A DNA stretch of 61,350 bases from SAR86 cluster bacterium (GTDB lineage Bacteria; Pseudomonadota; Gammaproteobacteria; Magnimaribacterales; TMED112), in contig SHBL01000001.1 of the NCBI GenBank assembly GCA_004321845.1, positions 1 to 61,350 of the forward strand, read 5' to 3'. Position numbers and translations under genes: made by a program. Under the pieces are notes generated by a model. It had not been told where the DNA came from, ran no database searches, and saw only the letters and a list, made by a program, of their open reading frames with translations. This document shows, in pieces, positions 1 through 57,194 of this stretch. Positions within the stretch are counted from its first letter, which is position 1; every line of letters begins with the position of its first letter.

Positions 1-1176
1 TTGATGAGAAACAAAGGTGTAACCTTTTTTTGCATCTTCAAATTCTTTTTCCTGAAGTTTGACATAAGCTGTCATACCGTCTGCTACATATTCATTAGCT
101 AAGTTAAACATGCCGTGCCACATTGAATGTATACCAGCTAAAGTTATAAATTGAAATTTATAGCCCATTGCTCCAAGCTCTTTTTGGAACTTAGCAATAG
201 TTGCATCATCAAGATTCTTCTTCCAATTAAAAGAAGGTGAGCAGTTATATGCCAACATAATTTCTGGGTGGTCTTTCTTAATTGCTTCTGCAAAAGTTTT
301 AGCTTGTTCAAGATCTGGTTTAGACGTTTCACACCAAACAAGATCAGAATAGGGTGCATAAGCTAAGCCTCTAGAAATTGCTTGATCAAGACCTGCCTTG
401 CTTCTAAAAAAGCCTTCTGATGTTCTTTCGCCAGTTAAGAAAGGCTTATCATTTTCATCCACATCAGAAGTTACAAGATCTGCTGCATCAGCATCAGTAC
501 GTGCAATAAGAATAGTTGGAGTTCCTGAAACATCTGCTGCAAGCCTGGCTGCAACTAGTTTTTGTATTGCTTCTTGAGTAGGCACTAAAACTTTACCACC
601 AAGATGACCGCATTTCTTTACGCTTGCTAACTGGTCTTCGAAGTGAACGCCTGCAGCTCCTGCTGCTATCATTCTTTTCATCAATTCAAAGGCATTAAGG
701 TTTCCACCGAAACCTGCTTCAGCATCTGCAATAATTGGAGCGAAAAAATCAACTTTAGGATCTCCGTTAGAGCTCATCCATTCTATTTGATCTGCTCTTC
801 TAAAAGCATTATTAATTCTCGTGATAACTTTAGGTACTGAATCAACAGGATAGAGAGATTGATCTGGGTACATTGTGCCTGCTGAGTTATTATCAGCAGC
901 TACTTGCCACCCCGATAAATAAATTGCTTTTACTCCAGCTTTTACTTGTTGAACGGCTTGTCCACCCGTAAGTGCTCCTAGGCAATTTATGTAGTCTTCT
1001 GTGAACAGATAGTTCCAAAGTTTCTCAGCGCCTTTTCTTGCTAATGTACATTCAGGTTGCAAAGAACCTCTTAATTTGACAACTTCTTCTGCAGAATACG
1101 GTCTTTTCACGTGCTTCCATCTTGGGTTCTCAGCCCAATCTTTCTTTAAAGCAGTGACTTGATCACTTAAATTCAT
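1..1176 (-). CDS. aceA: isocitrate lyase, 3'-partial (runs off the window start)
   Basis: Absent from the ORF track because it has no in-window stop. My translation from the ATG at 1176 gives [40 protein letters not shown]... The in-frame ICL signature KKCGHLGGK is encoded at 592-618. The start abuts the aceB stop at 1177-1179. Confidence 0.9.
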
Positions 1177-2748
1177 TTATATACTCCTATATGCGGGCAG
1201 TGTGAGGAAATCAGTTAATTCGTCGCTCAAAACTAAATCTTTTAATAAAACTTTAGCTTCAACAAACTTACCTGAATTCAAAGAGTTTTGCCCAACCTCT
1301 TCTAAGACGATATTGTATTCTTCCTCTAATAGTTTTTCAAACGACTCCTTGGATGACACTAAACCGGTATCTAGCTTTACACTGTGCTTAACCCATTGCC
1401 AAAGAGAGCTTCTTGATATCTCAGCTGTAGCAGCATCTTCCATTAGACCATAAATTGGAACACACCCAACACCTCGCAACCAAGCTTCAATATATCTAAG
1501 CGATACGCGAATATTGGTTCTGAAGCATTCTTCAGTAAAACTGCCTGAACATGGTTCGATCAGATCATCTTGATTAATGACATCGTCCTCACGAAGAACA
1601 TGCAACTGGTTAGTTCTATCAAACTCGAATGCATTTGAAAAAACATTGTTAGCAATATCAGCAAGCCCAGGGTGAGCAATCCATGTGCCATCATGGCCAT
1701 TCTGAGTTTCAAGGGTTTTGTCGCTTAGAACTTTCTCGATTACAACTGCATTTTCATCAGAATCTTTTGAGGGTATTAGGGCAGCCATGCCCCCCATAGC
1801 AAATGCTCCTCTCTTATGACATGTTTTAATTAAAAGCCTTGAATATGCATTAAGGAATGGTTTATCCATGCCTACTTGATATCTGTCAGGAAGAAGTCTT
1901 GAACGATCATTTTGAAAAGTCTTAATGTAGCTGAAAATATAGTCCCACCTACCGCAATTTAATCCAACAATATGATCCTTAAGTTCATATAGTATTTCAT
2001 CCATTTCAAAAACTGCTGGCAATGTCTCTATAAGACAAGTGACCCTTACAGTTCCTCTAGGAAGATTTAGTTGGTCTTCAGCGTAATTAATCACCTCATT
2101 CCAATACCTTGCTTCCAAATGACTTTGTAATTTGGGGATATAAAAATATGGTCCTGAACCTCTATTAATAAGTTCCTTTGCATTATGAAAAAGATAATAG
2201 CCAAAGTCACATAGACAGCCTGGTGGATTAATGCCATTAATCTCTATGCCTTTTTCTAACAAATGTAAGCCTCTAACTCTACACATCAATACCGCTGTTT
2301 CATCGTTTAACTGATATTTTTTATCATTTGCAGGGTTTTCAAAGGTAATAGTCTTACGAACTGCGTCATGGAGATTTAATTGGCCGTTAGCTACGTTTTC
2401 CCATGTAGGGCTCAGAGAATCTTCAAAGTCAGCCATAAAAACTTTCACATCTGCATTCAGAGCATTTATAACCATTTTTCTCTCAACTGGTCCTGTAATC
2501 TCAACCCGCCTATCTTTTAAATCTTTCGGAATGTCCCTAACATGCCAATCAGAAGATCGAATGTCTTTGGTTTCATCTAAAAAATTTGGCAGTTTACCGG
2601 TATTAAATTCAGATTGTCTTTCTGCTCGTTTAGCTAATAAATCTTGAATTTTAGTTCCAAACTTACTGTGCAAGTCTTGCACAAATTTATTTGCTTCATC
2701 GGTGAAAATAATCTGTGTATTTTCAGGTATCTTAAAATTAAATTTCAT
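1177..2748 (-). CDS. aceB: malate synthase A
   Basis: 523 aa. Contains EITGPVERKMVINALNADVKVFMADFEDSLSPTW, typical of malate synthase A. The ATG overlaps the purB stop (TAATG). Confidence 0.92.
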   Translation of the reverse strand: MKFNFKIPENTQIIFTDEANKFVQDLHSKFGTKIQDLLAKRAERQSEFNTGKLPNFLDETKDIRSSDWHVRDIPKDLKDRRVEITGPVERKMVINALNADVKVFMADFEDSLSPTWENVANGQLNLHDAVRKTITFENPANDKKYQLNDETAVLMCRVRGLHLLEKGIEINGINPPGCLCDFGYYLFHNAKELINRGSGPYFYIPKLQSHLEARYWNEVINYAEDQLNLPRGTVRVTCLIETLPAVFEMDEILYELKDHIVGLNCGRWDYIFSYIKTFQNDRSRLLPDRYQVGMDKPFLNAYSRLLIKTCHKRGAFAMGGMAALIPSKDSDENAVVIEKVLSDKTLETQNGHDGTWIAHPGLADIANNVFSNAFEFDRTNQLHVLREDDVINQDDLIEPCSGSFTEECFRTNIRVSLRYIEAWLRGVGCVPIYGLMEDAATAEISRSSLWQWVKHSVKLDTGLVSSKESFEKLLEEEYNIVLEEVGQNSLNSGKFVEAKVLLKDLVLSDELTDFLTLPAYRSI

Positions 2749-4091
2749 TATTTAATTTCAGCTAGCTTTGCTGCTAAACCTATATATTTGCTGGGAGTTA
2801 AACCAATTAGTATTTTCTTGTATTCGTCGCTTTCTATAAGCTCTTCAACTGCTTTTAAATACATTTCCTTATCCATTTTTTTTCCTCTGGAAAGATGCTT
2901 TACTTGATCGTAACCATCTTTCTTGCCTTCAAGCCGCAGAAAGCTTTGTAATGCTTCTGTTAGCAACTCATATCTTTCTTCAAGATCGTTAGATATAACT
3001 TTTTTATCGGCTTCTAATTTATTAAGACCTTTCAGTGTTGAATTGATTGCAATTTCTACATATCCATAAGCTGTGCCAATGTTTCTCAATACAGTAGAGT
3101 CTGATAAATCCCTTTGAAGCCTAGAAACTGGAAGCTTTTCAGATAAATGGGAGAAAATAGCATTTGCTAGACCAATGTTGCCTTCTGCATTCTCAAAGTC
3201 AATTGGATTGACTTTGTGAGGCATGGTCGATGATCCCACTTCATCTTTGCTCATTTTTAAAGAGAAATAATCTAAAGAAATATATGTCCAAATATCTCTG
3301 TTCAAATCCAAAATTATCGTATTGAATCTTTGGATATTTTGGAAGAGTTCAGCCATATAGTCATGTGGTTCAATTTGAGTTGCAACAACTGTTAACTCAA
3401 TATCGAGGTGTTTTAAAAAAACCTTAGAATGCGATACCCAATCCTCACCAGGAAACGCTAAAAGATGAGGGTTATAGTTGGCTGTTGCTCCGCCCCATTT
3501 AGCGTAAAATTTTGACTTTAAAAGACTGGCATATTCTTTTTTGATTCTGGTTAGAAACACATTAATCTCTTTTCCAAGTGTAGTAGGGGAAGCTGGTTGA
3601 CCATGTGTTCTCGACATCATAGCTAAGTCTTTGTTTTTTTGAGCAAGAAGTTCTAATTCCTCTATTACTTGCTCTATCCAGCCCAATAGGCTGCCATGAG
3701 CTTGTTTTAACATCAGAGCATAACTAAGGCTGTTTATATCTTCTGAGGTTAAGAATATATGTATGACGCTTTGTACTTTCTCTGAATGCTTAAATTCTTC
3801 TGCAAGTGCTAGCTCAACAGCTTTTACATCATGGTTTGTAGTTTCTTCAATCTCTTTAACTCTTGCAATTAATGAATCTGGAATTGCTTTCAATAACTCA
3901 TCAATTTTTGAATTAGTTTCAGTGTCTTTTAGTTCGGGTTTAAAATTAGTTAAAAAATAGCTTAGCCATTCTATCTCTGCTATTAGTCTTGCTTTAATAA
4001 GTGCGTATTCAGAAAAATTTGCGCGTGATTTTTGGGTTTTTTCCCGATACCTACCGTCTAGTGGGGATAGATTATTAAGAGTGTCATTCAT
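2748..4091 (-). CDS. purB: adenylosuccinate lyase
   Basis: 447 aa. N-terminal LSPLDGRY motif and fumarate-lyase-family SSTMPHKVNP signature. Confidence 0.93.
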   Translation of the reverse strand: MNDTLNNLSPLDGRYREKTQKSRANFSEYALIKARLIAEIEWLSYFLTNFKPELKDTETNSKIDELLKAIPDSLIARVKEIEETTNHDVKAVELALAEEFKHSEKVQSVIHIFLTSEDINSLSYALMLKQAHGSLLGWIEQVIEELELLAQKNKDLAMMSRTHGQPASPTTLGKEINVFLTRIKKEYASLLKSKFYAKWGGATANYNPHLLAFPGEDWVSHSKVFLKHLDIELTVVATQIEPHDYMAELFQNIQRFNTIILDLNRDIWTYISLDYFSLKMSKDEVGSSTMPHKVNPIDFENAEGNIGLANAIFSHLSEKLPVSRLQRDLSDSTVLRNIGTAYGYVEIAINSTLKGLNKLEADKKVISNDLEERYELLTEALQSFLRLEGKKDGYDQVKHLSRGKKMDKEMYLKAVEELIESDEYKKILIGLTPSKYIGLAAKLAEIK

Positions 4092-10336: not shown

Positions 10337-10832
10337 AACCAAAAATATTATGTTAAATAAATTTATCTACAATATTTAACAATTACTTTATAACCCTACA
10401 GAATAAGCTTTACAGTGGTTCTATATAATACATTTTAATCATATATATATTTAACATAATATATATTATGCGAAGTTATATGGGTGTGGATAAAAGTGTG
10501 GAAAAAGTTGGTAACCTCCCCCATAAAATTTAGATAGAATTTTCGATTTGTAAAAGTTAATAAAAAGTAATGTGGGGAAAAAATATAAAACTATAAAAAT
10601 TTGAAATTTTTTTAAAAAAAATAAAATTATTCTGATTTTTAAAAAAAACATACTTTCAATTTCTTCGTATAAAGTGATTTATTCATTGATAGTCGACTAC
10701 TATCTCTATTTTTATAAAATCTTCTTTAAAATGGACTTTAGGGCCCTATTTTCAATTTTTTATAAAATTGGAACAATTTTTACTAATTTTTATATTAATA
10801 TTGGATTTACTTACTCAAATATTGGATTTTTT

Positions 10833-13685
10833 ATGATTTACAGATTTATTTTGTTACTTACCCTACTCTCTTCTAATTATTTATCAGCGGACTTAATGAA
10901 ACCTACTTCATTATCTAAAGATTTATACGATATTAAAATTTTGAATGGGAATTACGATCCCTCTATCGAACATCCTGATAATTTTCTAGATTTTGACTAT
11001 GGCACTCGAGTTGCTAGTCCTCTTCAAATTGAAAATGCTATAAAAGCCTATTCTAATCAGTCTGATAGAATAAAAGTAGTTGAATATGGTAAAACACATG
11101 AAGGTCGTACTTTATATGCATTATATATATCTTCTCCAACTAACTTAGCCAATTTAGATAATATTCAAGCATCCATTTCTAAACTATCTGATGCTAGATC
11201 TACTTCTGATCGTGAAGCTAAATCCTTAATTGAATCGTTACCTGCTACTGCCTGGATGGCCTATTCTATTCATGGTAACGAAACATCTGGTGCAGATGCT
11301 GCATTAGGGATTATTTATCATCTGATAGCAAGCAATGATACTTCAGTAACCAACATGCTAGACAATATGATAGTAATTGTTGACCCTATGATGAACCCAG
11401 ATGGCAGAGATAGGTTTGTAAAATCTCTTGAGCAATATAGAGGGACATCACCAAATTATGATGATCAGTCTCTTTTGCATTCTGGTGACTGGCCTTATGC
11501 CAGAACAAATCATTATTACTTTGATCTTAATCGAGATTGGTTTTATCTTACTCAGCCTGAAACTCAAGGAAGAGTTCCTTTAATCAACAAATGGCGTCCA
11601 CAAATTCTAGTTGATGGTCATGAAATGGGTGCCCAAGATACGTTTATGACAGGACCTCCTAGAGAGCCAATAAATACAAATATTGACAGAGATTTAATTA
11701 AATGGGGTAATGTTTTTGCTGATGATCAAGCAAGAGCTTTCGATGATAATAATTGGCGTTTTTATACTGGGGAATGGCATGAAGACCTCTATCCTGGCTA
11801 CTCTTTTTACATTCAATTTAGAGGTAGTTTAGGAATCTTATATGAGCAATCCAGAATGTCTGAAGATGGTGTGCGAAGACCTGAAGGAACGATTCAGTCA
11901 TACAAAGAATCAGTCCATCATCAGTTTGTTAGTACCTTAGCTAACCTCAAAACTCTTGAAAAACATACGAAGGCTATGTATCAAGATTTCTGGGATGGAA
12001 GAAAATATAATGTCTCTAGAAATAGTGAATTTGCTAATCAAACCTTTGTTGTATTGCCTACAGAAAATATAGGCAGACTTAATACTTTTGCTAAAAAACT
12101 CCAAGCTCAAGATATTGAAATATATTTAAATACCAAACCGATACAAACTAAATCTGCTATAAAACAAAGTGGTGATTCTCAAGAAAATTACGTAATACCT
12201 GCTGGAAGTATGATTATTCCAAACCTGCAGCCAGAAGCACCTTTAATAGCAGCAATACTTGAATTTGATGCTGAAATAATTGAGTCAGTCCTTGAAGAAG
12301 AAAGAAGACAAACTTTAAAGAATGGTTCTTCAGTAATGTATGACACGACAGCTTTTAACTTAACAATGATGTATGGCCTGGAAGCAGTTACAGTTCAAGA
12401 GAATATTCAAGGAAATCTGTCGCAGTGGGAACCGTCAAAAGTAGACAATACTATCAATAAAGATGCTCTCATGTGGGCCGTAAATGGGATGGATGATCGC
12501 TCTGTAGCTTTTGCTGCTCGACTTATGGAGCTTGGTGTTGAAGTCAGAATTATAGACAAAGAATCTATTCTTTCAGATCAAAACCTGCCTCGAGGAAGCG
12601 TCGTTGTTATTGAAATGGATAATCCAAATTTTGAAAATTTAAGCTCTGTTGTTGGTTCTGTAGCTAGTGATTTAAGTATTTCGGTTGTATCAATAGATTC
12701 AGGTTTTGGGCCTGAGGAGCTTCCAGATTGGGGCGGTAGACATTTCAGGCTATTAGAACGACCTCAAATTGCATTAATGGCACAGCAAAACTTCAGCTCA
12801 TATGACGTTGGTGTGAGTTGGTGGTCTTTAGATCATCACCTTGGCATTAGGCATAGTATGGTAAATGGCTCTTCTGTTAGTTATGGAGATTTAACCCGTT
12901 ACAACACAATCATTATGCCAAGCGGCTATCAAGGGCTTTCAACCTCTGAAATGAATAGCTTAAGAGATTGGGTTAAGCAAGGCGGCACCTTAATTGCTCA
13001 TAATGGAAGTTCAAGAAGTCTTGCTAGTGAAAATGGAATTGGTTCGGTTAGACAAATTTCAAGCACATTCGATAAAAGTGAAGCCTATAACATGGATCTA
13101 CAGCGTGAATTTGGAGCTTTGAGTGTAGAAATTGATATGCAAAAGGTAAATGCAAACAAGGTAAATTTTGAAGTTGAATACCCTTGGGAAGCTAGTAAAA
13201 ATAAATTCAATAAAGCGCAGTTAGAAATGAGGGATAAGTGGCAGTCTTTGTTTATGCCATCTGGTGCTATTGTTGCCGGAAGGACTGATAATGAGCATTG
13301 GTTAACATTTGGAACGGTAGACACACTCCCGGTTTTATATGGTAATAACCCTGTTCTTATGACTAGCAATAATTCTGAAGCAGCTGTTCGAGTTGGACAG
13401 ATAATTGAAAATAAAGAAGCTACAAGCTATAGAACAATTAACTGGTCTGATATGCCGCCTAATACAGATCTTAATGTAAAAATGAGTGGGTTAGTTTGGC
13501 CAGAAGCTTCACAAAGGATTGCAAATTCAGCTTACTTGACTCGTGAAAGAGTCGGCAGAGGTCAGGTAATTTTATTTTCAGGAGAACCAAACTTTAGAGG
13601 AGCTGCTTTAGGAACAAATAGACTATGGCTTAATGCAGTAGTTTATGGAGCTGGATTAGGCACCTCATCTAGAATAGATCCATAA
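10833..13685 (+). CDS. secreted M14-family zinc carboxypeptidase-like protein with a large C-terminal extension
   Basis: HxxE zinc motif (YSIHGNETSG) and a distal His (VDGHEMG). Signal-peptide-like start MIYRFILLLTLLSSNYLSA at the ATG at 10833. The ORF-track GTG start at 10674 only adds low-complexity AT-rich sequence. Confidence 0.7.
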   Translation: MIYRFILLLTLLSSNYLSADLMKPTSLSKDLYDIKILNGNYDPSIEHPDNFLDFDYGTRVASPLQIENAIKAYSNQSDRIKVVEYGKTHEGRTLYALYISSPTNLANLDNIQASISKLSDARSTSDREAKSLIESLPATAWMAYSIHGNETSGADAALGIIYHLIASNDTSVTNMLDNMIVIVDPMMNPDGRDRFVKSLEQYRGTSPNYDDQSLLHSGDWPYARTNHYYFDLNRDWFYLTQPETQGRVPLINKWRPQILVDGHEMGAQDTFMTGPPREPINTNIDRDLIKWGNVFADDQARAFDDNNWRFYTGEWHEDLYPGYSFYIQFRGSLGILYEQSRMSEDGVRRPEGTIQSYKESVHHQFVSTLANLKTLEKHTKAMYQDFWDGRKYNVSRNSEFANQTFVVLPTENIGRLNTFAKKLQAQDIEIYLNTKPIQTKSAIKQSGDSQENYVIPAGSMIIPNLQPEAPLIAAILEFDAEIIESVLEEERRQTLKNGSSVMYDTTAFNLTMMYGLEAVTVQENIQGNLSQWEPSKVDNTINKDALMWAVNGMDDRSVAFAARLMELGVEVRIIDKESILSDQNLPRGSVVVIEMDNPNFENLSSVVGSVASDLSISVVSIDSGFGPEELPDWGGRHFRLLERPQIALMAQQNFSSYDVGVSWWSLDHHLGIRHSMVNGSSVSYGDLTRYNTIIMPSGYQGLSTSEMNSLRDWVKQGGTLIAHNGSSRSLASENGIGSVRQISSTFDKSEAYNMDLQREFGALSVEIDMQKVNANKVNFEVEYPWEASKNKFNKAQLEMRDKWQSLFMPSGAIVAGRTDNEHWLTFGTVDTLPVLYGNNPVLMTSNNSEAAVRVGQIIENKEATSYRTINWSDMPPNTDLNVKMSGLVWPEASQRIANSAYLTRERVGRGQVILFSGEPNFRGAALGTNRLWLNAVVYGAGLGTSSRIDP

Positions 13686-15130
13686 TGATAAAGAAGATTT
13701 TCAAGGTTTTATGGAAAAGCGCAACTGCATATGTAGTTGCTGGATTTGCATTAATTCAATTAGCAAGTGTTGTAGTAAATAATGTTTCTATTAAAGATAC
13801 TTTAGGGGTCTCTCAAGAATTATTTATGCAAACTTTATTTATTGGAGTGCCAGCATTCTTGCCTGTGTTCCTTTTATTGGCATATTTCTTAAGATCTGAA
13901 GATGACGAAATAGAAACAAATAAGGGTGTCGTCAGAAGTGATAACCTAATACCCAAAATTGGGGTGCTACCATTTGAGAATCTTAATAAAGATGAAGAAG
14001 GTTTATTTCTTGTTGACGGTATTGTAGAAGACTTAATAAGTGAGTTTTCTATGATAAAAGAGGTTGAAATTGTTTCTAGAAAAGCATGTTTCGAATGTAG
14101 GAAAGATGCGCTTTCTATTAATGAATTTGCCTCCAAATGGAATGCTGATTATCTAGTATCTGGAAGCATTAGAGCGGTAGAAGACAGGCTTAGGATATCT
14201 GTGGAATTATCTGAATCTGAAGATGGTAATGTACTTTGGTCAAATAAATATGATCGTGTTAAGAAGGATATCTTCGAAGTACAGGATGAAATTGTTAAAA
14301 AAATTATTAATCAAACTGTTGGAAATATTGAAATAAAAAGTCTTAAAAGAGCCTTTAGGAAACCTACAAAAAATATGACTTCATATGACTATATGCTCAA
14401 GGGAAGAGCCTTAAATCAGAAATATAACAAAGAATCTAATACTGAAGCGTTGAAAATGCTTAATTTAGCAATAGAAGCTGATAAAACAAACCCCCTGCCC
14501 TACTCCTGGAAAGCATGCACTATGGGCCAAGCTATAGGTATGGGTTTTGTAGACCAAACAGATGAATGGGTAAATGAGATGTTTGAAGCAATAAATTTTG
14601 CAAAAGAAATGAATGAAAATGATTGGAATGCTAATAGACTTTTGGGAGAGGTACACCTTTCCTTGCATGATTATGCTCAGACTCTAAAATTTGCCACAAT
14701 TTCTTTCAATGCTAACCCAAATAACCCTAATGTGATGTCTATTTACGGTGATGCACTGTTAAGAAACAATAAAATTTCAGAGGGAGTAAAAATGTGGGAG
14801 AAATTATATGGAATTGATCCTGTACCATTCGCAGATAGTAGCTCTGACAGACGAACAAATAATCTATTTTTTGCATATTTTTTAAATAACCAATTTGATG
14901 AATGTGAAAATATCTTTGATTCTATTAATGAACCCACTAATAGAACTTGGCTTCTTAGAACACATTTAAAAACTTCGCAAAATAAAGAATTTAAAAAAGA
15001 AAATTGGTATGAAAAGGGGCTTGAAGACTTTAAAAGTTTAGATTGGGAAAATGAGGTCGATAGATTTCATCTCAACAATGATAATTTGCAACAGGACCTT
15101 ATTTCAACAGCAAAAGCACAGTTCGCTTAA
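13685..15130 (+). CDS. membrane-anchored protein with a TolB-N-like domain and TPR repeats
   Basis: 481 aa. Two N-terminal hydrophobic segments, then IGVLPFENLNKDEEGLFLVDGIVEDLI (TolB-amino-terminal-like pattern) and a TPR-like C-terminal half. The start overlaps the peptidase stop (TAATG). Confidence 0.55.
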   Translation: MIKKIFKVLWKSATAYVVAGFALIQLASVVVNNVSIKDTLGVSQELFMQTLFIGVPAFLPVFLLLAYFLRSEDDEIETNKGVVRSDNLIPKIGVLPFENLNKDEEGLFLVDGIVEDLISEFSMIKEVEIVSRKACFECRKDALSINEFASKWNADYLVSGSIRAVEDRLRISVELSESEDGNVLWSNKYDRVKKDIFEVQDEIVKKIINQTVGNIEIKSLKRAFRKPTKNMTSYDYMLKGRALNQKYNKESNTEALKMLNLAIEADKTNPLPYSWKACTMGQAIGMGFVDQTDEWVNEMFEAINFAKEMNENDWNANRLLGEVHLSLHDYAQTLKFATISFNANPNNPNVMSIYGDALLRNNKISEGVKMWEKLYGIDPVPFADSSSDRRTNNLFFAYFLNNQFDECENIFDSINEPTNRTWLLRTHLKTSQNKEFKKENWYEKGLEDFKSLDWENEVDRFHLNNDNLQQDLISTAKAQFA

Positions 15131-49069: not shown

Positions 49070-50056
49070 ATGAAAGTAGTAGTAACAGGTGCAGCAGGTC
49101 AGATAGCATATTCCTTAATCCCTTTCCTTTGTGAAAAGGGTGTTTTCAGTTCCAGTAAAAAATTAGATTTAAATTTAGTTGAAATACCGCAAGCAATGGG
49201 CAGGCTAGATGGTTTTGTAAAAGAACTTGAGGATTCAGCTTACTCTACTGTTAATTCAATAAATACTTTTGACAAAATAGAAGATGCAGTTGTAGATGCT
49301 GATTGGTGTCTCTTGGTTGGATCTATACCTCGTGGAATAGTTTTAAATGGTAAGGAAATCAAAGAAAGATCAGACCTATTACAGATAAATGGCAGCATCT
49401 TTACAGAACAAGGAAAAGCAATTGGTGCGCGTGCAAAAGAACATTGCAAAGTTCTTGTTGTTGGAAATCCAGCAAATACTAATGCATTGATTGGATACAA
49501 AAGCGCAGGAAAAAATACTCAATTATGGCTGGCAATGACTATGCTTGATGCGCTTAGAGCAAAAGCACAACTGTCCCAAAAACTTGGTTGCCATGTTGAT
49601 GATATATACCGTTTGGCAATATTTGGTAACCACAGCCCAACAATGTTTCCTGATTTAGAAAATACATTAGTGGCTGGTAAAAACGCATACCAAGAGATAG
49701 ATGATCATGGCTGGGTTGAGAATGATTTTCTTCCCAAAATTCAACAAAGAGGTGCTGAAATAATCAAAGCTAGAGGTGCTTCTTCAGCATCATCAGCTGC
49801 TAGAGCTGCCTGTGACACTGTAAAAGCTGTTGAACATCCTACTAGATCAGGTGATGTTTTTAACGCTGCGGTAATGAGCGATGGTGCTTATGGTATGCCT
49901 GAGGGTATATTTTCTGGTTTTCCTCTAATCTCAGATGGTAAAGGCTCTGTTGAGATTGTTCGAGATTATAGTCTTAGTGATTTTGCAAAAAAAGGATTAG
50001 AGAAAACTGCAAATGAATTGGTTGAAGAAAGAGATTTAGTCAAAGATTTAATCTAA
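49070..50056 (+). CDS. mdh: malate dehydrogenase (LDH-like/cytosolic-type family)
   Basis: MKVVVTGAAGQIAYSL and VVGNPANTNA motifs. Confidence 0.9.
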   Translation: MKVVVTGAAGQIAYSLIPFLCEKGVFSSSKKLDLNLVEIPQAMGRLDGFVKELEDSAYSTVNSINTFDKIEDAVVDADWCLLVGSIPRGIVLNGKEIKERSDLLQINGSIFTEQGKAIGARAKEHCKVLVVGNPANTNALIGYKSAGKNTQLWLAMTMLDALRAKAQLSQKLGCHVDDIYRLAIFGNHSPTMFPDLENTLVAGKNAYQEIDDHGWVENDFLPKIQQRGAEIIKARGASSASSAARAACDTVKAVEHPTRSGDVFNAAVMSDGAYGMPEGIFSGFPLISDGKGSVEIVRDYSLSDFAKKGLEKTANELVEERDLVKDLI

Positions 50057-50422
50057 ACACCAACCTGAGAGATCTATATTGTTATTCTTATTAGGTTTGT
50101 TGCTTTCATATACCTGCCAACTTAAATTCCCTTCATTATCATAATATTTTGCCGTACCTTCTATTTTGCCTTTAGAAATTGGATACGTTCCCTTCACCAC
50201 TCCATTTGGATACCAAGTAGTTAACTCGCCATCCAGAATTCCGTTTTTATAGAATGATTGCTTTCCTATTTGACCATTGAGATACCATTTCTGATATAAG
50301 CCCTCTCTAATATCACCCTGAAGCTCAAATCTTTCTTTCAACTCACCTGTTTTGTAATGAGTTTCCACAGTCTCTGATTGCATAAAATTTGCTAAAAATA
50401 ATAATAGAATGATTCTAATCAT
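50048..50422 (-). CDS. secreted MORN-repeat (YwqK-like) protein
   Basis: Repeated G-x-W/Y-x-NG pattern (YQKWYLNGQ, TTWYPNGV, KYYDNEGN). Signal-like MIRIILLLFLANF from the ATG at 50422, 2 nt after the upstream stop. Confidence 0.6.
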   Translation of the reverse strand: MIRIILLLFLANFMQSETVETHYKTGELKERFELQGDIREGLYQKWYLNGQIGKQSFYKNGILDGELTTWYPNGVVKGTYPISKGKIEGTAKYYDNEGNLSWQVYESNKPNKNNNIDLSGWCLD

Positions 50423-51437
50423 TATTATTGCCACCTTGACCACCGCCACCTATACCAAAAGGCTCTCCTCTAATACAACCATAAATATAAGGAAAATCTT
50501 CAGTGGCATGGTAGTGGTATTCATAACCATGAGGGTTATCATGACTATGGCCATTACACTCATCCAAGTAAATTTCTAGATTATCCTTTTCAACGTACTC
50601 ATAGGCATCAAAAACATACCTTTGTGGATTCTGACCATCAATTAATTCATAGCTGCTTTGTGGTGATACAAGATTAACTCCATCGTTATTGGCATACTCA
50701 TATTCATTGAAAATTGGGAAGCCATCAGGTCCAAAACCTAAAATTAATGAGGTATATAAGATCTCTGGTTGCGGGTCTGTTGCAGGGTTAGCAGTTAAAC
50801 CATTGGGATTAAAACATCTAAAATTTAGTGCATGGTTATGATAGGCAAAAGCAGTATGCCCACCGCAATCATCTAAAATATTATTGTAGACAGGGTCACC
50901 GTAAGCTTGGTTTGCAGGCTGCCCTCCCTCTGTTGGACCAAAGATATTTAAGCCTGTATTAGTAAAACCCATATAACCAAGCACAACTGGGCCATTAGCA
51001 CCAATATTAGTAGGTTGTCTTGATACATCATAGGAAGGCTCAAGAGGTACACTCCATTGTTCATCTCTTTCAACCAAGTCATTTGGAGTCATTGGTATAA
51101 AACTATAGTGTGGAACAGAATTTGAATTTATAACTAGGTTTCCATTTGAACAAGACACCTGCAATCTTGGCATCATATTGTACTGTTCTCCTGGTCCAGG
51201 AGCTTCGCTAACATCTAAAAATGCTTCTTTGATATGTGTAGGGCAATTTTCATCCATTTCATAAACACCTGTTGGAGCTGGAGTTGGAGCTGGAGTAGGT
51301 TCTGGTGTTGGGGCTGGTGTTGGGGCTGGTGTTGGTATTGGTTCAGGAGCTGAAGATCCTCCACCACTTCCACCGCCACATGCTACAAGCAATATTGTTG
51401 TAATAACTATTTTTGTAAAATTTTTAATATTAAGCAT
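50415..51437 (-). CDS. lipoprotein with PT-rich linker and YHYH domain (function unknown)
   Basis: Lipobox [41 protein letters not shown] linker, and His-rich C-terminal CNGHSHDNPHGYEYHYHAT matching the YHYH-domain signature. Confidence 0.65.
   Translation of the reverse strand: MLNIKNFTKIVITTILLVACGGGSGGGSSAPEPIPTPAPTPAPTPEPTPAPTPAPTGVYEMDENCPTHIKEAFLDVSEAPGPGEQYNMMPRLQVSCSNGNLVINSNSVPHYSFIPMTPNDLVERDEQWSVPLEPSYDVSRQPTNIGANGPVVLGYMGFTNTGLNIFGPTEGGQPANQAYGDPVYNNILDDCGGHTAFAYHNHALNFRCFNPNGLTANPATDPQPEILYTSLILGFGPDGFPIFNEYEYANNDGVNLVSPQSSYELIDGQNPQRYVFDAYEYVEKDNLEIYLDECNGHSHDNPHGYEYHYHATEDFPYIYGCIRGEPFGIGGGGQGGNNND
51271..51342. repeat. imperfect 12-nt tandem repeat encoding the PT linker of the YHYH lipoprotein
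   Basis: Six 12-nt units: gttggagctgga x2, gtaggttctggt, gttggggctggt x2, gttggtattggt. Confidence 0.85.
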
Positions 51438-51448
51438 GTTATGTGGAC

Positions 51449-54400
51449 TTAGTTCTCCACAGTAAAACTATTGCCTGGTACTGTAAAGGTTTTACCATCA
51501 CTGAAAGTCACTACCAAAGGCTCATTATTAAAGTTATAAGCAACATAATTAATTTCATTATTCTTTTTAAAAGCTACTGCTGCAGGATGGTTAGCTGTGA
51601 GATCCCCAGTTCCTGTTTGTATATGGCCTAAAGCATTAAATGTATGCAACCAATGGTAAGTATGGGCTTTTGATTCACCAGCTTCAGTATTGTAGTTTGG
51701 TGCCATAGTTTCGTAGTCAGCTATAGCATTTTCAGAATCAACCATAGCCCATAGATTCCACCATAAATCTCGCCATTGATCTTCTGATAATCCAGATGGT
51801 TTGCCATTGGAAGACTCTGATAATCCTAATGTGACATAATCTTCCATATAATCTTTATATTGGCTAACGTGAAAAATTAATGGGTTTGAAGGTAGGCCTT
51901 GGATGCCAAGGATATGTGCATAAGCTGGACTAAACCAGGTTGAAAAATCTGCTCCTGCCGACCAAATTATTGAAGTTGTGATCTTGTCATAACCTGGGAT
52001 GAAATTATCGTAATCAGCTCCAAGGTTTTTATACCCATCAATGTTATTCCAATATTGCCAGTAGGCTGCTGAAGTGGAGGCGTGTAAATAGATGCCTTTG
52101 TTTACGAGTTCCTGGTTGTTAGTAATTAAGCCGTAAAGAATTATTGCACCATATGAATTTGCTGCTTCTGATGTTGATTCATTATTATTGCCTTGTAATG
52201 CATCTGCCTTACCATCAGCCCAAGAGAAACCATTAGCTGGATCAAAATTTCTTAATGAAGGGAACATTTCGTCACCAGGATCGCCTGCATAGTCTCGAAT
52301 AAGCAACTCAACCATTGGGCCATATTGTTCTTGTGAACACCAGCTTCTGTCTTGTCGACAAATTTCTGCTGCTGCTCTGACAAAATATCCATAATGGAAA
52401 TGATGGTCTGCAAGTCTTTGGTGGGAACCAAAAGCTTCTTCAATTCCTAATAAAGTATCCCACTCTTCATCGTAAACAAAATATCGCACCTCATCGAGAG
52501 CTCCACCTGTTTCAGCTGTAAACCAGTCTGAGAGCTGTGATTTAAGCCACTGTATAATTTGATCAGCTTCTTGATCCATACCAATTGCACGAGCAATGCC
52601 TGCTATCTCAGCTGCTTTACCATAAGCCTTTCCAGACCAATATGTATCTGTACTATTTATCCAACTATCTTCACCGCCCGTCATGTAATCTTGTATGAAC
52701 TGTTCAAGTGTATTCACATCATATGTATCTGGTATCGATGGCATTAAAGGCAAAATGCCTACAAAAGGAATTTGATAATCAAAAGATGATAGTTCAGCAA
52801 ACTTAACAATACCTCTAGCACTTCTGATTTTATATTCTGAAGTTTCTTGGTCAGAAAATTTCCAATGCATAGGGTGCATTCCAACAATAGTATCTACAGA
52901 GTTACCTTCAGAGTCTAAATAATTATGACTAACTGAAACTGTATTAGATGATCGATCAACTGAATAGTTTATATCTACTTCACTAACGATATTCCTTGCT
53001 TTACTGGCAAAAAAATTAGAAATATTATCAGACGGCATGCCATCTAAAATTGGTAAGTAGCTTACAGTAAATGAATGGTAGGCTTCGCCATTATCAGGTT
53101 TTGTCATCTCAATATTATTGCTAGAAATATTTGAAAAAACTGTTCCAACTGAGCCTGTTATAAGGAAATTATTTCTAATTCCAGCAACATCTGTCCAAAC
53201 TCCAAGATTATTATCAAATTCATAAAAAGTGCCTTTTTCATTACCATCTGAGGCCTTAGTTACAATAATTGGATCGCCATCAAAGACTGTAAAGTAAACA
53301 TATGGTGAGCCATGAACAAAAGTTGCCCTCATGATATTTGTCTCGTTATCAGCAGTCCATCCAACTGTAACTGAGCCATCACTATAATCAACTAAATATG
53401 CATTTAACTCTGAATGTTTTGAATTTGCGATTGCAATACCATCAAAGACTTCAGCAAATGGTTCAGGACCATCATATCGTGGAAAATTCCCAAAGAGTTT
53501 ATAACCTCCTGGCAATCCCATTAGCCTTGCACCTTTATTGCTTACTCTTGCTCGAATTGGGTCTGCAGTAATATGCGCTGTACCATTCACATCTCCTATT
53601 GTCATCTCTCCTAGAAATGGAATTGATCCCCACCACCTATGTGTTGGAACATTTTTTTCTTGCGCTGTATATTGTGGTTGTAGTTTTACAGGATTTCCTG
53701 AAGGAATGTTAGTTGATGCATCACAGCCCGATATTGCAGGCTCTACTACACCGGCATTATATATCCAGTTTCCAAAATCTACTGCACAACGATAACTATC
53801 AGGATTTATAGTATCTGATACATTGCCTGCTCCAAATTCAATTAAATTATAAGTTACCGGAGTTCCAGAACCTCCATCATTAGGATCCGTTGGTGGCGTT
53901 GCCCCATCTGCAATACCTGTGAAACGAACATTATCAATCTGGTATATTAGTCCTGCTCCCGTTTGAAATTCTGGGAAAAAGACCATTGGTGCAGTTATGC
54001 TTCCAAGATCCAGTTCACCACTTTCTGTTAATGAAGAGACAGGAAAATCAATAAACTCCCATTCACCTGTAGAATTAATGCCATTAACTGATAACTCTCC
54101 AGAGATTAACGAACCACTTTCAACCTTTACATAAAAACCACCAGATAGTTCAGAGGCTCCATCGTCAATAATTTTAATATCAAAAGATAAAGAGCCTTCA
54201 GAATAATCGCTGAGATTCACTGCAGGAGATGGTCCAATTACTAAGCCAGCATGCCCTGCATTTGATAAGTAAGTTACTTCTAATACTTCGCCTCTTTCTT
54301 CGTCAATAACAACTTCCCAATCAACACTTTCACAAGTTTCTGTGCCGCTAGTTTCATTAGTGCAATCTGAGTATCCATTTAATTCATCAAAAAATGATAA

Positions 54401-54646
54401 ATACGTATTTCCACCCCAAATATCTCCAACATTCCCATCATTTAGTACCGTTACATCCATGTCTGTTGGATCAGTATCTGGGGCTGGTGTTGGGGCTGGT
54501 GTTGGGGCTGGTGTTGGGGCTGGTGTTGGGGCTGGTGTTGGGGCTGGTGTTGGTATTGGTTCAGGAGCTGAAGATCCTCCACCACCTCCGCCGCAAGCAG
54601 TCAAAACTAGTATAGAAAAAATTGTAATGAGATTTTTTAACGACAT
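51449..54646 (-). CDS. lipoprotein GH81-family endo-beta-1,3-glucanase with PT linker and an N-terminal beta-sandwich-like module
   Basis: Lipobox VLTAC, (PAPT)n linker, and GH81 catalytic-region motifs DHHFHYGYF and [12 protein letters not shown]. The ATG overlaps the lysS stop (TAATG). Confidence 0.78.
54480..54551. repeat. six perfect copies of a 12-nt tandem repeat (ggggctggtgtt) encoding (PAPT)n
   Basis: Read directly from the sequence; the units are contiguous and identical. Confidence 0.9.
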
Positions 54647-56109
54647 TACTTTAATGTAGGGAAAAGAACTACATCTCTAATAGAACTTTTATTTGTCGCT
54701 AACATTACTAGCCTATCAATCCCTAAGCCTACACCCATTGCTGGTGGCATTCCATGTCTTAAAGCATTGATATAATCATCATCGTATAACATAGCTTCTT
54801 CATCACCAGAGTCTTTTTGCTTAACTTGCTGCATAAACCTTTCCTCTTGGTCGGTTGGGTCATTCAACTCACAGAAAAAATTTGCAAATTCTCTTCCAGC
54901 GATAAATAGTTCTATTCTATCTGTATAGTCTTTGTCATCATCTTTTCTTCTAGAAAGAGGAGAAACTTCATAAGGATAATCTTTAACAAATGTTGGTTTC
55001 CAAAGCTTCTTTTCAACGTGTTCTTCGAACAACTCAAGAAGCACCTTACCCCAACCCCAATCTTTTTTAATTTTTATGCCATTATTTTCAGCAGCGTTAA
55101 ATATTTGTTCTTCTGTATCAAGATCAGCTTTTAATTCATCTTTAACTAAATCTTTTAAAGATTTAACATCAAAGTCATTTTTTAAATCTAACTCTTTTTC
55201 TTCATATGTAATCGTTAGAGAGTCATTGACAGCCAATATGCTATCTTGAACTAATTTTTGTACAAATAAGGTAGTTTTCTTAAGCGTTCCATATGCTTCA
55301 TAGAACTCTAACATTGTAAATTCTGGATTATGTATCGTAGATAACCCTTCATTCCTAAAGTTGCGGTTAATTTCAAAAACTTTTTCAAAACCACCAACTA
55401 GCAGTCTTTTTAAATAAAGTTCTGGAGCAATTCTAAGGAATAATTCCTTATCTAGTGCATTGTGATGTGTTTTGAATGGTTTAGCATTTGCGCCTCCAGG
55501 TATAGGGTGCATCATTGGTGTCTCAACCTCGAGATACCCAGCTTCTTCTAAATTCTTTCTTATTGATTGGATAATTTTATTTCTTTTAACAAATATTTCT
55601 CTTGAATCCTTATTGCTCATTAAGTCTACATATCTTTGTCTGTAAATTTTTTCAATGTCGGTTAGGCCAGCATGTTTTTCTGGCATTGGATTTAAGGACT
55701 TAGTTATAAGCTTGAAATCTTTTACTTCGATGGTTAGTTCATCAGTTCTTGTTCTAAATAGAACCCCTTCAATACCGACGATATCTCCTAAGTCTAAATC
55801 TTTAACTTCCTCTAGCCTTTCTTCTAAATTATTTTTTGAGAAATAAGCTTGGATCTGACCAGAAAAGTCTTCAATTGTCATGAATACAACTTTTCCCATT
55901 TCTCTTTTAAGGACAACTCTACCAGCATTGCAAGCGGTTGCATTTTTCTTTTCAAGAACCTCTTTAGATAAACTACCAAAGTCCTCAATTAAATGGGAAA
56001 TTTCATATTTTTTTTCAAAATCGTTTGGATAGTTAAAGCCCTCACTTCGAAGTTTCAATAATTTAGCTTCTCTATCTTTCTGAACTTTTGATAAATTTTT
56101 AGTATCCAT
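54646..56109 (-). CDS. lysS: lysyl-tRNA synthetase (class II)
   Basis: 487 aa with an OB-fold N-domain and class II motifs (FRNEG, GLGIDRL). Confidence 0.95.
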
Positions 56110-57194
56110 TTTTTAAACTTTCTTTTATGAAGTTATTAATTTTACCATCTAAAACTGATTGAGTATTTGTTTCCTCATGCTTTGTTCTGATATCTTTTAT
56201 TCTAGATTGGTCCAATACATAAGATCTTATTTGGTTGCCCCAACCTATATCCGTTTTTGAATCTTCTATCTTTTTTATCTCCTCCTCCTTTTTTTGCATT
56301 TCCATTTCATAAAGTCTTGATTTGAGCTGCTTAATCGCTCGATCTTTATTTTGATGTTGTGATCTTTGAGATTGACATTGAACTACAAGTCCACTTGGAA
56401 TGTGAGTAAGCCTAACTGCAGAATCTGTTTTGTTAACATGTTGTCCACCTGCACCAGAAGCTCTATATGTATCAATTCTTACCTGTGACATATCCAAATC
56501 AATTTCAATGTCATCATCTATTTCAGGAGAAATAAAAACTGCAGCAAACGATGTATGTCTTCTGTTTCCTGAATCAAAGGGAGATTTTCTTACTAGTCTA
56601 TGAATCCCTGTTTCAGTCCTTAACCAGCCATATGCATACTGACCGCTAATATGGATACTCGCACTTTTTATGCCTGCTACATCTCCGACAGAGTATTCTT
56701 CAATCTTAACTTTAAAACCCATATCTTCAGACCATCTCATATACATTCTGTATAACATTTCGGCCCAATCTTGTGCTTCTGTACCGCCAGAACCAGATTG
56801 AATATCTAAGAATGCATTGTTAGGGTCTGTCTCTCTGGAAAAATATTTTTTTGTCTCTAATGAGTCAATTTCAGCATTTAGTTCAACTAAAGCACTATTT
56901 TGATTACTCAATTCATCTATTTCACCCAATTCAATAGATATGTTTATTAAATCTTTAATATCAGCAAGCTTGGTTTCAATAACATCAAACTCATGAATTT
57001 TTATTTCGAGTCCTATTTTGTCTTTATTAAGACCATTAAGCTTTTTGTGGTCTTTCCACAAATCTGGATCTTGTAATTTTTTTTCTAACTCTTCTAATTG
57101 ATTGTTAAGATTTTCAGGGTCAAAGAAACCCCCTCAATTCTTCAACTCTATCTGAAGTTTTATTTAAGAGTAAATTTAATTCTGCTTTATCCAC
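56099..57194 (-). CDS. prfB: peptide chain release factor 2, requiring a programmed +1 frameshift
   Basis: Frame 0: GTG at 57194, then 24 codons (MDKAELNLLLNKTSDRVEELRGFL) ending CTT TGA. The +1 frame continues DPENLNNQLEELEKKLQDPDLWKDH... through the SPF and GGQ (GAGGQHVN) motifs. Confidence 0.9.
57119..57134 (-). promoter_or_regulatory. prfB +1 frameshift site (internal SD-like AGGGGG + CTT TGA C)
   Basis: The minus strand reads AGGGGG TTT CTT TGA C, essentially the canonical RF2 autoregulatory site. Confidence 0.9.

Follow-up and report, generated by a model that had tools for sequence, protein, structure and literature searches.

Bacterial GH81 enzymes, represented by BhGH81 from Bacillus halodurans and CtLam81A from Clostridium thermocellum, are inverting endo-laminarinases (PMC8949617), and the laminarin loci of Gammaproteobacteria bring together GH16, GH17 and GH3 enzymes with TonB-dependent or MFS transporters (PMC10108472). 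The YHYH domain (Pfam PF14240) was called 'enigmatic' by Iyer et al. (2021), who predicted it to be a Zn-dependent tail-associated hydrolase with a His3+Asp site (PMC7824862), and no functional study of it beyond that prediction was found in the literature. The present analysis concerns a stretch of 61,350 nucleotides (nt) from a SAR86 cluster bacterium (assembly GCA_004321845.1, contig SHBL01000001.1, positions 1 to 61,350 of the forward strand; this whole stretch is called the window below), in which the gene of a GH81 lipoprotein lies between lysS and the gene of a YHYH-family lipoprotein, and the gene of a MORN-repeat protein follows. An earlier note on the window had taken the three genes as a surface-lipoprotein operon, in which the YHYH protein acts on the same extracellular substrate as the glucanase. 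Our comparison favours a different reading, to which we assign a probability of roughly 0.7: prfB, lysS, YHYH and MORN form a conserved housekeeping segment of SAR86, an accessory GH81 gene has been inserted in one lineage at the sequence coding for the lipoprotein tether, and the YHYH protein is an independent metalloprotein.

GH81 in the lysS–YHYH slot

The identity of the glucanase and of its catalytic-region motifs, as proposed in the earlier note, was borne out. Glyco_hydro81C (PF17652), the model of the C-terminal (α/α)6 catalytic domain, matched residues 663–992 with an E-value of 1.3e-41 and 143.5 bits against a cut-off of 25.6, and phmmer aligned the protein with the solved structures 6FOP (CtLam81A; 7.8e-85, query 436–1063) and 5T49/5UPI (BhGH81; ~3e-73, query 418–1065), the homology extending from about residue 420 to the C-terminus. 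With both enzymes the protein shares the core, at E-values of 1e-73 to 1e-85, and the motifs DHHFHYGYF and E-x-x-x-E, and the motif regions align column for column with those of BhGH81 (DHHFHYGYF and NQESSSEA). In the literature on RmLam81A and BhGH81, catalysis is assigned to acidic residues, namely the Asp in DHHFHYGYF and both Glu in E-S-x-S-E. Unlike the two characterized enzymes, the window protein is a predicted lipoprotein with a Gly-run/(PAPT)n tether, has an N-terminal module of about 230 amino acids (aa) in the place of the CBM6/CBM56 carried by BhGH81, and is encoded in a prfB–lysS housekeeping operon rather than in a glycan-utilisation locus. The module, first described as a β-sandwich-like unit of about 200 aa, is present and is kept in all close homologs, full-length proteins of marine Gammaproteobacteria that are 55–98% identical at 100% query coverage, but it has no Pfam match and no PDB sequence match; it may be similar to a carbohydrate-binding module. 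The protein is described here as a predicted endo-β-1,3-glucanase, an ordinary new member of a well characterized family in an unusual genomic setting, and a literature search returned no report of a SAR86 GH81.

The tether had also been described correctly. In GH81 a Gly run and then a (TPAP)n linker come after the lipobox LTAC (...LVLTA-C18), and in the YHYH protein, the gene of which starts 11 nt after the GH81 stop, the lipobox ...LLVA-C20 is followed by a Gly run in the same tether architecture. Both conform to the pattern [LVI][ASTVI][GAS]C at the end of the signal peptide by which bacterial lipoproteins (Lgt/LspA substrates) are recognized, and both are predicted lipoproteins.

A genome-collection scan with an alignment of 14 YHYH sequences gave 77 loci, the best 15 of which came from SAR86-clade genomes; the window proteins were compared with these 15 loci by tblastn and with open reading frame (ORF) maps, with flanks of ±10 kb. 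The conserved SAR86 arrangement is lysS, YHYH and MORN, convergent with mdh. The slot upstream of YHYH is visible in 12 SAR86 species genomes, and lysS directly abuts YHYH in ten of them (L002–L006, L008, L010–L012 and L014). GH81 occupies the slot in one species, being found among the 15 loci solely in L001, which is 98–99% identical to the window, and in one further species (L007:7277-9265) the slot contains the gene of an unrelated 662-aa tethered lipoprotein. This protein has no Pfam match and no PDB sequence match, and its repetitive pattern might hint at a β-helix. No GH81 remnants were seen by tblastn in the empty slots of the 15 loci. Since the GH81–YHYH arrangement recurs in independent assemblies (L078–L080, L085 and L090) it is not a chimera, and the adjacency of the two genes is confined to one species-level lineage.

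The survey was extended to both families outside SAR86. GH81 was found within ±10 kb of YHYH in none of 62 non-SAR86 loci, and conversely YHYH, MORN or the YHYH partner described below was found in none of the 79 other loci encoding relatives of the window GH81 (80 metagenomic loci with 58–100% identical relatives, 64 of them with at least 1.2 kb of downstream sequence). lysS stands upstream of GH81 solely in L090, which has the window's own arrangement; the neighbours of the GH81 clade are typically housekeeping genes (gltX, dxs, ispA, GST and a glyoxalase-II-like gene), with an MFS transporter beside 12 of the 80. In the marine GH81 clade (L094–L169) the enzyme is usually encoded by a solitary gene amid housekeeping genes, outside classical TonB-receptor polysaccharide-utilisation loci. 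The lack of YHYH co-localisation with glycoside hydrolases in other genomes had been named beforehand as an outcome that would speak against a shared substrate, and for the loci sampled this is essentially what was observed.

The way in which GH81 sits in the slot is recorded in the sequence of the tether. The ribosome-binding site and signal peptide that serve GH81 are those of the resident YHYH gene, and the junctions fall within the sequence that codes for the tether. Over positions −20 to +75 the leader that precedes GH81 (leader A) shares 99% identity with the YHYH leader of L006, 92% with that of L003, 91% with that of L004 and 88% with that of L002; the leader of the window's own YHYH gene (leader B, MLNIKNFTKIV...) is 46–62% identical to the YHYH leaders of the relatives. 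In BLASTN comparison with L006, window positions 56200 to 54479 correspond to L006 4479–6200 and window positions 51383 to 49000 to L006 6081–8469, and 120 nt of L006 (6081–6200; Cys, Gly run and linker) are matched twice in the window, bracketing 54478–51384. This 3,095-nt segment holds the mature GH81, its stop, the 11-nt spacer and leader B (MLNIKNFTKIVITTILLV...), and homology to the YHYH genes of the relatives resumes at 51383, in the second tether copy; the boundaries are approximate to a few nucleotides because the breakpoints fall in repeats. Within the window the two tether copies form a direct repeat of 107 nt with 92% identity (51270–51376 and 54488–54594). The insertion in the L007 slot has the same geometry when compared with L008, the insert measuring 1,867 nt and the duplication of leader and tether 128 nt. 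Across about 335 kb of SAR86 DNA, only YHYH, GH81 and the L007 slot gene have the tether, and 2 of 68 GH81 ORFs carry it; an 85%-identical GH81 at another locus (L083/L093) has its own leader and the same tether. Leader A, the 120-nt duplication, the independent L007 insertion and the tethered GH81 at another locus therefore make recombination between tether repeats sufficient to account for the adjacency and the shared tether of GH81 and YHYH.

GH81 would have entered by homologous recombination at the tether-coding repeat, either through Campbell-type integration of a circularised tethered-lipoprotein gene or through a double crossover in which the donor had two tethered genes; alternatively, the tether may have been duplicated in tandem. 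The simple Campbell model predicts that leader B is the former leader of GH81, and this prediction found no support, the 98%-identical GH81 of L085 having a third leader. In L085 that GH81 stands behind the third leader (3757–3860; ..KKLITSFLAIMIVVAC) and YHYH still has leader B, which suggests repeated leader swapping at the tether. Upstream of GH81–YHYH in the same relative (1–3756) is a gene of at least 1251 aa, the product of which ends in a YadA-like autotransporter anchor.

In the vsp/vlp systems of Mycoplasma and Borrelia, a shared 5' leader/linker segment is the recombination substrate by which mature domains are re-assorted behind an expression site. The SAR86 locus resembles them in that different lipoprotein genes have a common leader/linker-coding segment, but nothing points to switching or antigenic variation, neither a site-specific recombinase nor silent cassettes are seen, and what results is an accessory enzyme that a streamlined marine heterotroph has gained behind one of its housekeeping operons.

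The YHYH protein and its companions

PF14240 matched the YHYH protein over residues 128–324 (6.8e-19, 69 bits against a cut-off of 25; profile positions 2–193 of 193), so that in the Pfam check proposed in the earlier note both families lie above their cut-offs. There were 131 homologs at E≤1e-3, and in an alignment of 65 sequences the His3+Asp core (H194, H200, H202 and D292) is invariant in all 65, in agreement with the site predicted by Iyer et al. (2021; PMC7824862). N106, P134, G162, C191, C208, G239, C294, N295 and G296 are likewise invariant, E170, D181, D189, D238 and two further Cys pairs are nearly so, and the domain has three conserved Cys pairs. The protein had been described as strikingly His-rich, with a metal centre suggested; the motifs HNHALNF and CNGHSHDNPHGYEYHYH are indeed present and the four putative ligands are invariant, but most of the histidines are not shared across the family. 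H299 and H303 belong to an insert found only in SAR86 (the HSHDNPH stretch, 3 of 65 sequences), and in the second motif position 308 is His in 26 and position 310 in 37 of the 65. Motif 1 reads YHNH in the window protein (Y in 50/65, N in 5/65) and motif 2 reads YHYH. The protein is thus similar to the YHYH proteins of Iyer et al. (PMC7824862) in HMM membership and in the invariant His triad and Asp, and differs from the phage-tail fusions in being a stand-alone lipoprotein of a free-living bacterium, in its first motif, YHNH, and in the SAR86-specific His-rich insert ahead of the second.

An oxidative activity had been among the roles suggested. The histidine brace of lytic polysaccharide monooxygenases is ruled out, since signal cleavage leaves a Cys, predicted to be lipidated, at the N-terminus, with the Gly run and the PAPT linker behind it; the globular part begins only at GVYEMDENC. 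The structure search proposed at the outset gave a confident AlphaFold2 model (predicted local distance difference test, pLDDT, 86; predicted template-modelling score, pTM, 0.80), but Foldseek found no solved relative in the PDB (best E 0.45). The YHYH profile matched no PDB sequence at E≤10, the protein had no match in PHROGs, and in BFVD the model matched solely other YHYH proteins (cyanophage structural and baseplate proteins and ChoanoV1). The window protein belongs by sequence to a known but uncharacterised family, and it is most probably a disulfide-stabilised, metal-dependent enzyme with a putative His3+Asp site and most likely an envelope metalloprotein unrelated to laminarin. The gene call in L078 (11210–12243; GCA_045560165.1) divides YHYH into two ORFs of 77 and 280 aa, a split that implies a frameshift inside the (PAPT)n linker repeat, by repeat instability or assembly error.

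The companions of YHYH are MORN in SAR86 and an unnamed partner elsewhere, and not glycoside hydrolases. By hidden Markov model (HMM), MORN was found downstream of YHYH in all 17 SAR86 loci with the region visible and, among the loci examined outside SAR86, never next to YHYH. The window protein matches MORN_2 (PF07661) in two stretches (8.4e-09, 35.1 bits against a cut-off of 29.6), has a hydrophobic export signal at its N-terminus and matches no curated NCBIfam model at E≤0.1. A secreted, β-rich and Trp-rich protein without a name was detected by HMM in 47 of the 62 non-SAR86 loci, downstream of YHYH on the same strand in 42 of these 47. It occurs across Acidobacteriota, Myxococcota, other Proteobacteria and an SLH-bearing lineage (at least three phyla), and also in L081 and the SLH–YHYH loci L087 and L088; it is absent from the window and the SAR86 loci. 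Bryobacterales versions have an extra N-terminal domain with a NEGHAHLYLNGEK motif, and in L081 an arylsulfotransferase gene follows the YHYH–partner pair.

The recurrent neighbours, clustered within 5 kb of YHYH in the 62 loci, are an unnamed family (27 loci), sulfatases (24), a second YHYH (14), dienelactone hydrolase (11), ADP-ribosylglycohydrolase (8), a xylose-isomerase-like TIM barrel (7) and histidine kinases, with σ54 response regulators in some loci; CCP_MauG is absent among them. No glycoside hydrolase was found among these neighbours in Pfam scans, a statement that covers GH81 and recurrent families only, plus four pre-annotated contexts, in one of which (L086, Ornithinimicrobium) the single neighbour related to glycoside hydrolases was seen, a convergent α-amylase-family gene. 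The sulfatase genes number 46 across the 24 loci (L026–L028, L036, L038–L040, L044, L050 and other Bryobacterales), which often also hold the second YHYH paralogue, dienelactone hydrolase and ADP-ribosylglycohydrolase; the genomes may be those of sponge symbionts rich in sulfatases, in which case the association would not mean a functional link.

The unnamed partner has no Pfam, NCBIfam or PDB-sequence match even at permissive thresholds (E≤1/10). Its AlphaFold2 model is β-rich (pLDDT 86), and the only PDB matches with appreciable probability were six chains of MbnP (7L6G; E 0.013–0.30, probability up to 0.93), a marginal fold match with a template-modelling score of ~0.35, a root-mean-square deviation of 8–9 Å and none at E<0.001. 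MbnP, a periplasmic Cu protein, is rich in Trp and has a WxW motif; the neighbouring MbnH oxidises its Trp to kynurenine (PMC11951088). In the partner, W48, W52 and TWWP are near-invariant and one His is invariant; it gives no HMM match to the MbnP family and has TWWP, not WxW. The non-SAR86 YHYH proteins are comparable to the MbnP/MbnH 'metallo-mystery pair' in that they pair with a secreted Trp-rich, β-rich protein, but there is no sequence relationship, YHYH is no di-haem peroxidase and the partner is absent from the window. The modelled resemblance is weak, a lead and not a finding.

These observations bear on what YHYH might do. According to the reading favoured here, it would be an independent, constitutively co-expressed envelope metalloenzyme that works with MORN. 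Alternatively, YHYH may be a lipoprotein for metal scavenging or trafficking and not an enzyme, with an MbnP-like partner elsewhere and, in SAR86, an HSHDNPH loop that boosts metal capture in a metal-poor ocean. The invariant His3+Asp site together with the SAR86-specific insert, the MbnP chains as best fold matches of the partner and the Trp residues and invariant His of the latter, set beside a Trp-rich Cu protein (PMC11951088), would fit such a role. We nevertheless consider it unlikely, as the fold match is marginal and has no sequence-level link in NCBIfam or Pfam, no copper or zinc transport genes occur among the recurrent neighbours, the partner is missing from SAR86, and the invariant polar N106 and N295 (and, nearly so, E170, D181 and D238) suggest a substrate site.

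A bolder possibility is that YHYH and its partner form a widespread, undescribed two-component metalloprotein system of the periplasm or surface, for which SAR86 would have swapped in MORN and become hard-wired into prfB–lysS, the tether repeat serving as a recombinase-independent docking site; by analogy with MbnH/MbnP, the His3+Asp YHYH protein would mature, or work with, a metal-binding partner. We hold this to be unlikely as a whole; if it were true, accessory surface enzymes, GH81 among them, would reach SAR86 lineages by way of the YHYH tether repeat.

The MORN protein might also be one half of an enzyme–inhibitor pair for self-protection, in which YHYH is an envelope-degrading metallohydrolase and the exported MORN protein neutralises it in the periplasm of the producer; YwqK-family proteins are presumably made of MORN_2 repeats. 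The overlapping stop and start codons of the two genes and their strict co-occurrence in SAR86 would suit such a pair, as would the tail-associated hydrolase prediction of Iyer et al. (PMC7824862) and the role of YwqK as the antitoxin of YwqJ (PMC8321402). The pair is quite improbable, however, given that the window protein has no NCBIfam match, including one to a YwqK-family antitoxin or immunity protein, that MORN does not accompany YHYH outside SAR86, and that no toxin, secretion-system or toxin-delivery genes lie near this pair in a housekeeping operon.

Direction of the proposed insertion and functional coupling

Several points weigh against the insertion of GH81 beside an independent YHYH gene. 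The direction of the event is set by parsimony alone, one gain against at least three losses, and a repeat-mediated deletion of GH81 would regenerate lysS–leader A–YHYH exactly. The sample is about 12 SAR86 species genomes with flanks of ±10 kb. The donor of leader B was not found, and the third leader in L085 shows that one event alone does not describe the history of the locus. In both cases of capture in the slot the product is a tethered surface protein, which fits tether recombination and may also fit a functional island of proteins sharing the surface. The biochemical role of YHYH, finally, is a prediction for a fold without a solved relative.

The first of these points leads to a reading in which GH81 is ancestral at the locus and has been lost repeatedly through the tether repeats, so that the window would show the original state; recombination between direct repeats of 107–120 nt precisely restores the lysS–leader A–YHYH order of the relatives. 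It is quite improbable: GH81 would have to be lost independently at least three times, as against a single gain; judged by YHYH and lysS identities, the window lineage lies nested within relatives that lack GH81; close GH81 relatives are found at other loci; and in L007 another gene was gained independently at this position. Either direction, gain or loss, implies that no selection keeps GH81 with YHYH, and an ancestral GH81 would not rescue functional coupling.

Such coupling was the centre of the earlier note. In a model of this kind YHYH would be an auxiliary protein (oxidative, binding or hydrolytic) to GH81 on extracellular β-1,3-glucan within a dedicated laminarin operon; the 11-nt spacing and common tether, the phage YHYH domains fused to lectin-like or baseplate modules, which make a glycan-directed family role conceivable, and the second captured surface lipoprotein of L007 speak for it, but it is very improbable in view of an adjacency seen in 1 of 12 SAR86 species and in none of the distant YHYH and GH81 loci, a tether shared through recombination, a YHYH–MORN pair conserved without GH81 in a housekeeping operon, and a mature N-terminus without the histidine brace. 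The argument from shared tether and tight coupling to a shared substrate does not hold: the adjacency belongs to one lineage and the tether is a recombination footprint.

Locus layout and wider meaning

The coordinates are collected in Table 1. The lysS TAA stop and the GH81 ATG overlap by 1 nt (TAATG). MORN had been placed 2 nt after YHYH; the gene is indeed the next one, with its MORN_2 match and export signal, but its probable start, the ATG at 50422, lies inside YHYH, with an 8-nt overlap at the stop of that gene (ATGATTAG), and translation from this ATG gives the same 124-aa length as the gene call in L078. An alternative start is the GTG at 50449. All three genes (GH81, YHYH and MORN) are real and coupled translationally to lysS.

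Table 1. Positions of the genes, domains and insertion features discussed, in window coordinates unless another locus is named
Feature	Position	Strand	Basis or remark
lysS (lysyl-tRNA synthetase)	54646..56109	-	tRNA-synt_2 Pfam annotation in L078; junction AAAGTAATGTCG
GH81 endo-β-1,3-glucanase lipoprotein gene (predicted), 1065 aa	51449..54646	-	Pfam Glyco_hydro81C; PDB 6FOP, 5T49
YHYH-family lipoprotein gene, 340 aa, with leader B and tether copy 2	50415..51437	-	PF14240
MORN_2-repeat protein gene, 124 aa from ATG 50422	50048..50422	-	Pfam MORN_2
mdh (malate dehydrogenase), convergent, conserved right border of locus	49070..50056	+	Ldh_1_N/Ldh_1_C
Leader A: ribosome-binding region and signal peptide, the ancestral YHYH leader, now driving GH81	54596..54666	-	
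Tether copy 1: lipobox Cys18, Gly run, SSAPEPIP, (TPAP)n linker	54479..54595	-	holds repeat 54488-54594
Tether copy 2: Cys20, Gly run, (PAPT)n linker	51270..51383	-	holds repeat 51270-51376
Segment missing from unoccupied slots of relatives, 3,095 nt	51384..54478	-	BLASTN breakpoints against L006, L002, L008
GH81 N-terminal module, residues ~57-290 (~230 aa)	53777..54478	-	kept in marine GH81 clade
GH81 core, residues ~291-1065	51452..53776	-	alignments to 6FOP, BhGH81
GH81 motif DHHFHYGYF, residues 747-755	52382-52408	-	aligned to 6FOP, BhGH81
GH81 motif ESTSEA, residues 823-828	52163-52180	-	aligned to 6FOP, BhGH81
YHYH domain	50466..51056	-	conservation in 65 sequences
YHYH invariant putative metal ligands	H194 50856-50858; H200 50838-50840; H202 50832-50834; D292 50562-50564	-	
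YHYH partner examples	L018:11033-11863; L022:11044-12273; L081:10150-10938; L087:6053-6910		outside window

At their 3' ends (50048–50056) the convergent genes mdh and MORN share 9 nt, and no terminator-like structure was detected between them; promoter and terminator scans gave nothing above chance. As had been reported, no TonB-dependent or SusCD-type receptor is encoded among the large ORFs of the window, which are ClpA-like, M14 peptidase, GltB, amidase, LepA, NrdA and similar. The locus is comparable to the gammaproteobacterial laminarin loci (PMC10108472) in that a laminarin-directed enzyme is encoded by a bloom-associated marine gammaproteobacterium, and in that some GH81 relatives adjoin an MFS gene, but the window contains no transporter, regulator or second glucanase and GH81 stands alone, outside any polysaccharide-utilisation locus.

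Farther along the minus strand (57095–57140), prfB has the classic programmed +1 frameshift site CTT TGA C, with a Shine–Dalgarno-like GAGGGGG upstream and a reading frame that goes on in +1. At 10674–15130 the plus strand encodes a 1003-aa protein in which an M14 zinc-carboxypeptidase domain is confined to residues 123–307; the 481-aa ORF that follows it with overlapping stop and start codons has no Pfam match. A megablast search of nrdA against plasmids gave no match.

In conclusion, YHYH as a new β-glucan auxiliary activity was a tempting lead which has no support and is now removed; the remaining value lies in the association of YHYH with its partner or MORN and in the insertions at the tether site. 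In streamlined genomes, tight spacing and a common N-terminal architecture can be by-products of recombination. GH81 would be a laminarinase tethered to the outer membrane and made constitutively with lysS from a housekeeping operon, with transporter and regulator not nearby, and laminarinase capacity would be an accessory trait of one SAR86 species-level lineage among 12 species genomes, which bears on ecotype differences in glycan use. MORN in SAR86 and the unnamed partner elsewhere are the right co-expression candidates for work on the YHYH fold, which occurs in marine bacteria, diatoms and cyanophages, and the repeated capture of tethered surface-protein genes at one linker repeat suggests a simple route to diversification of the surface proteome.

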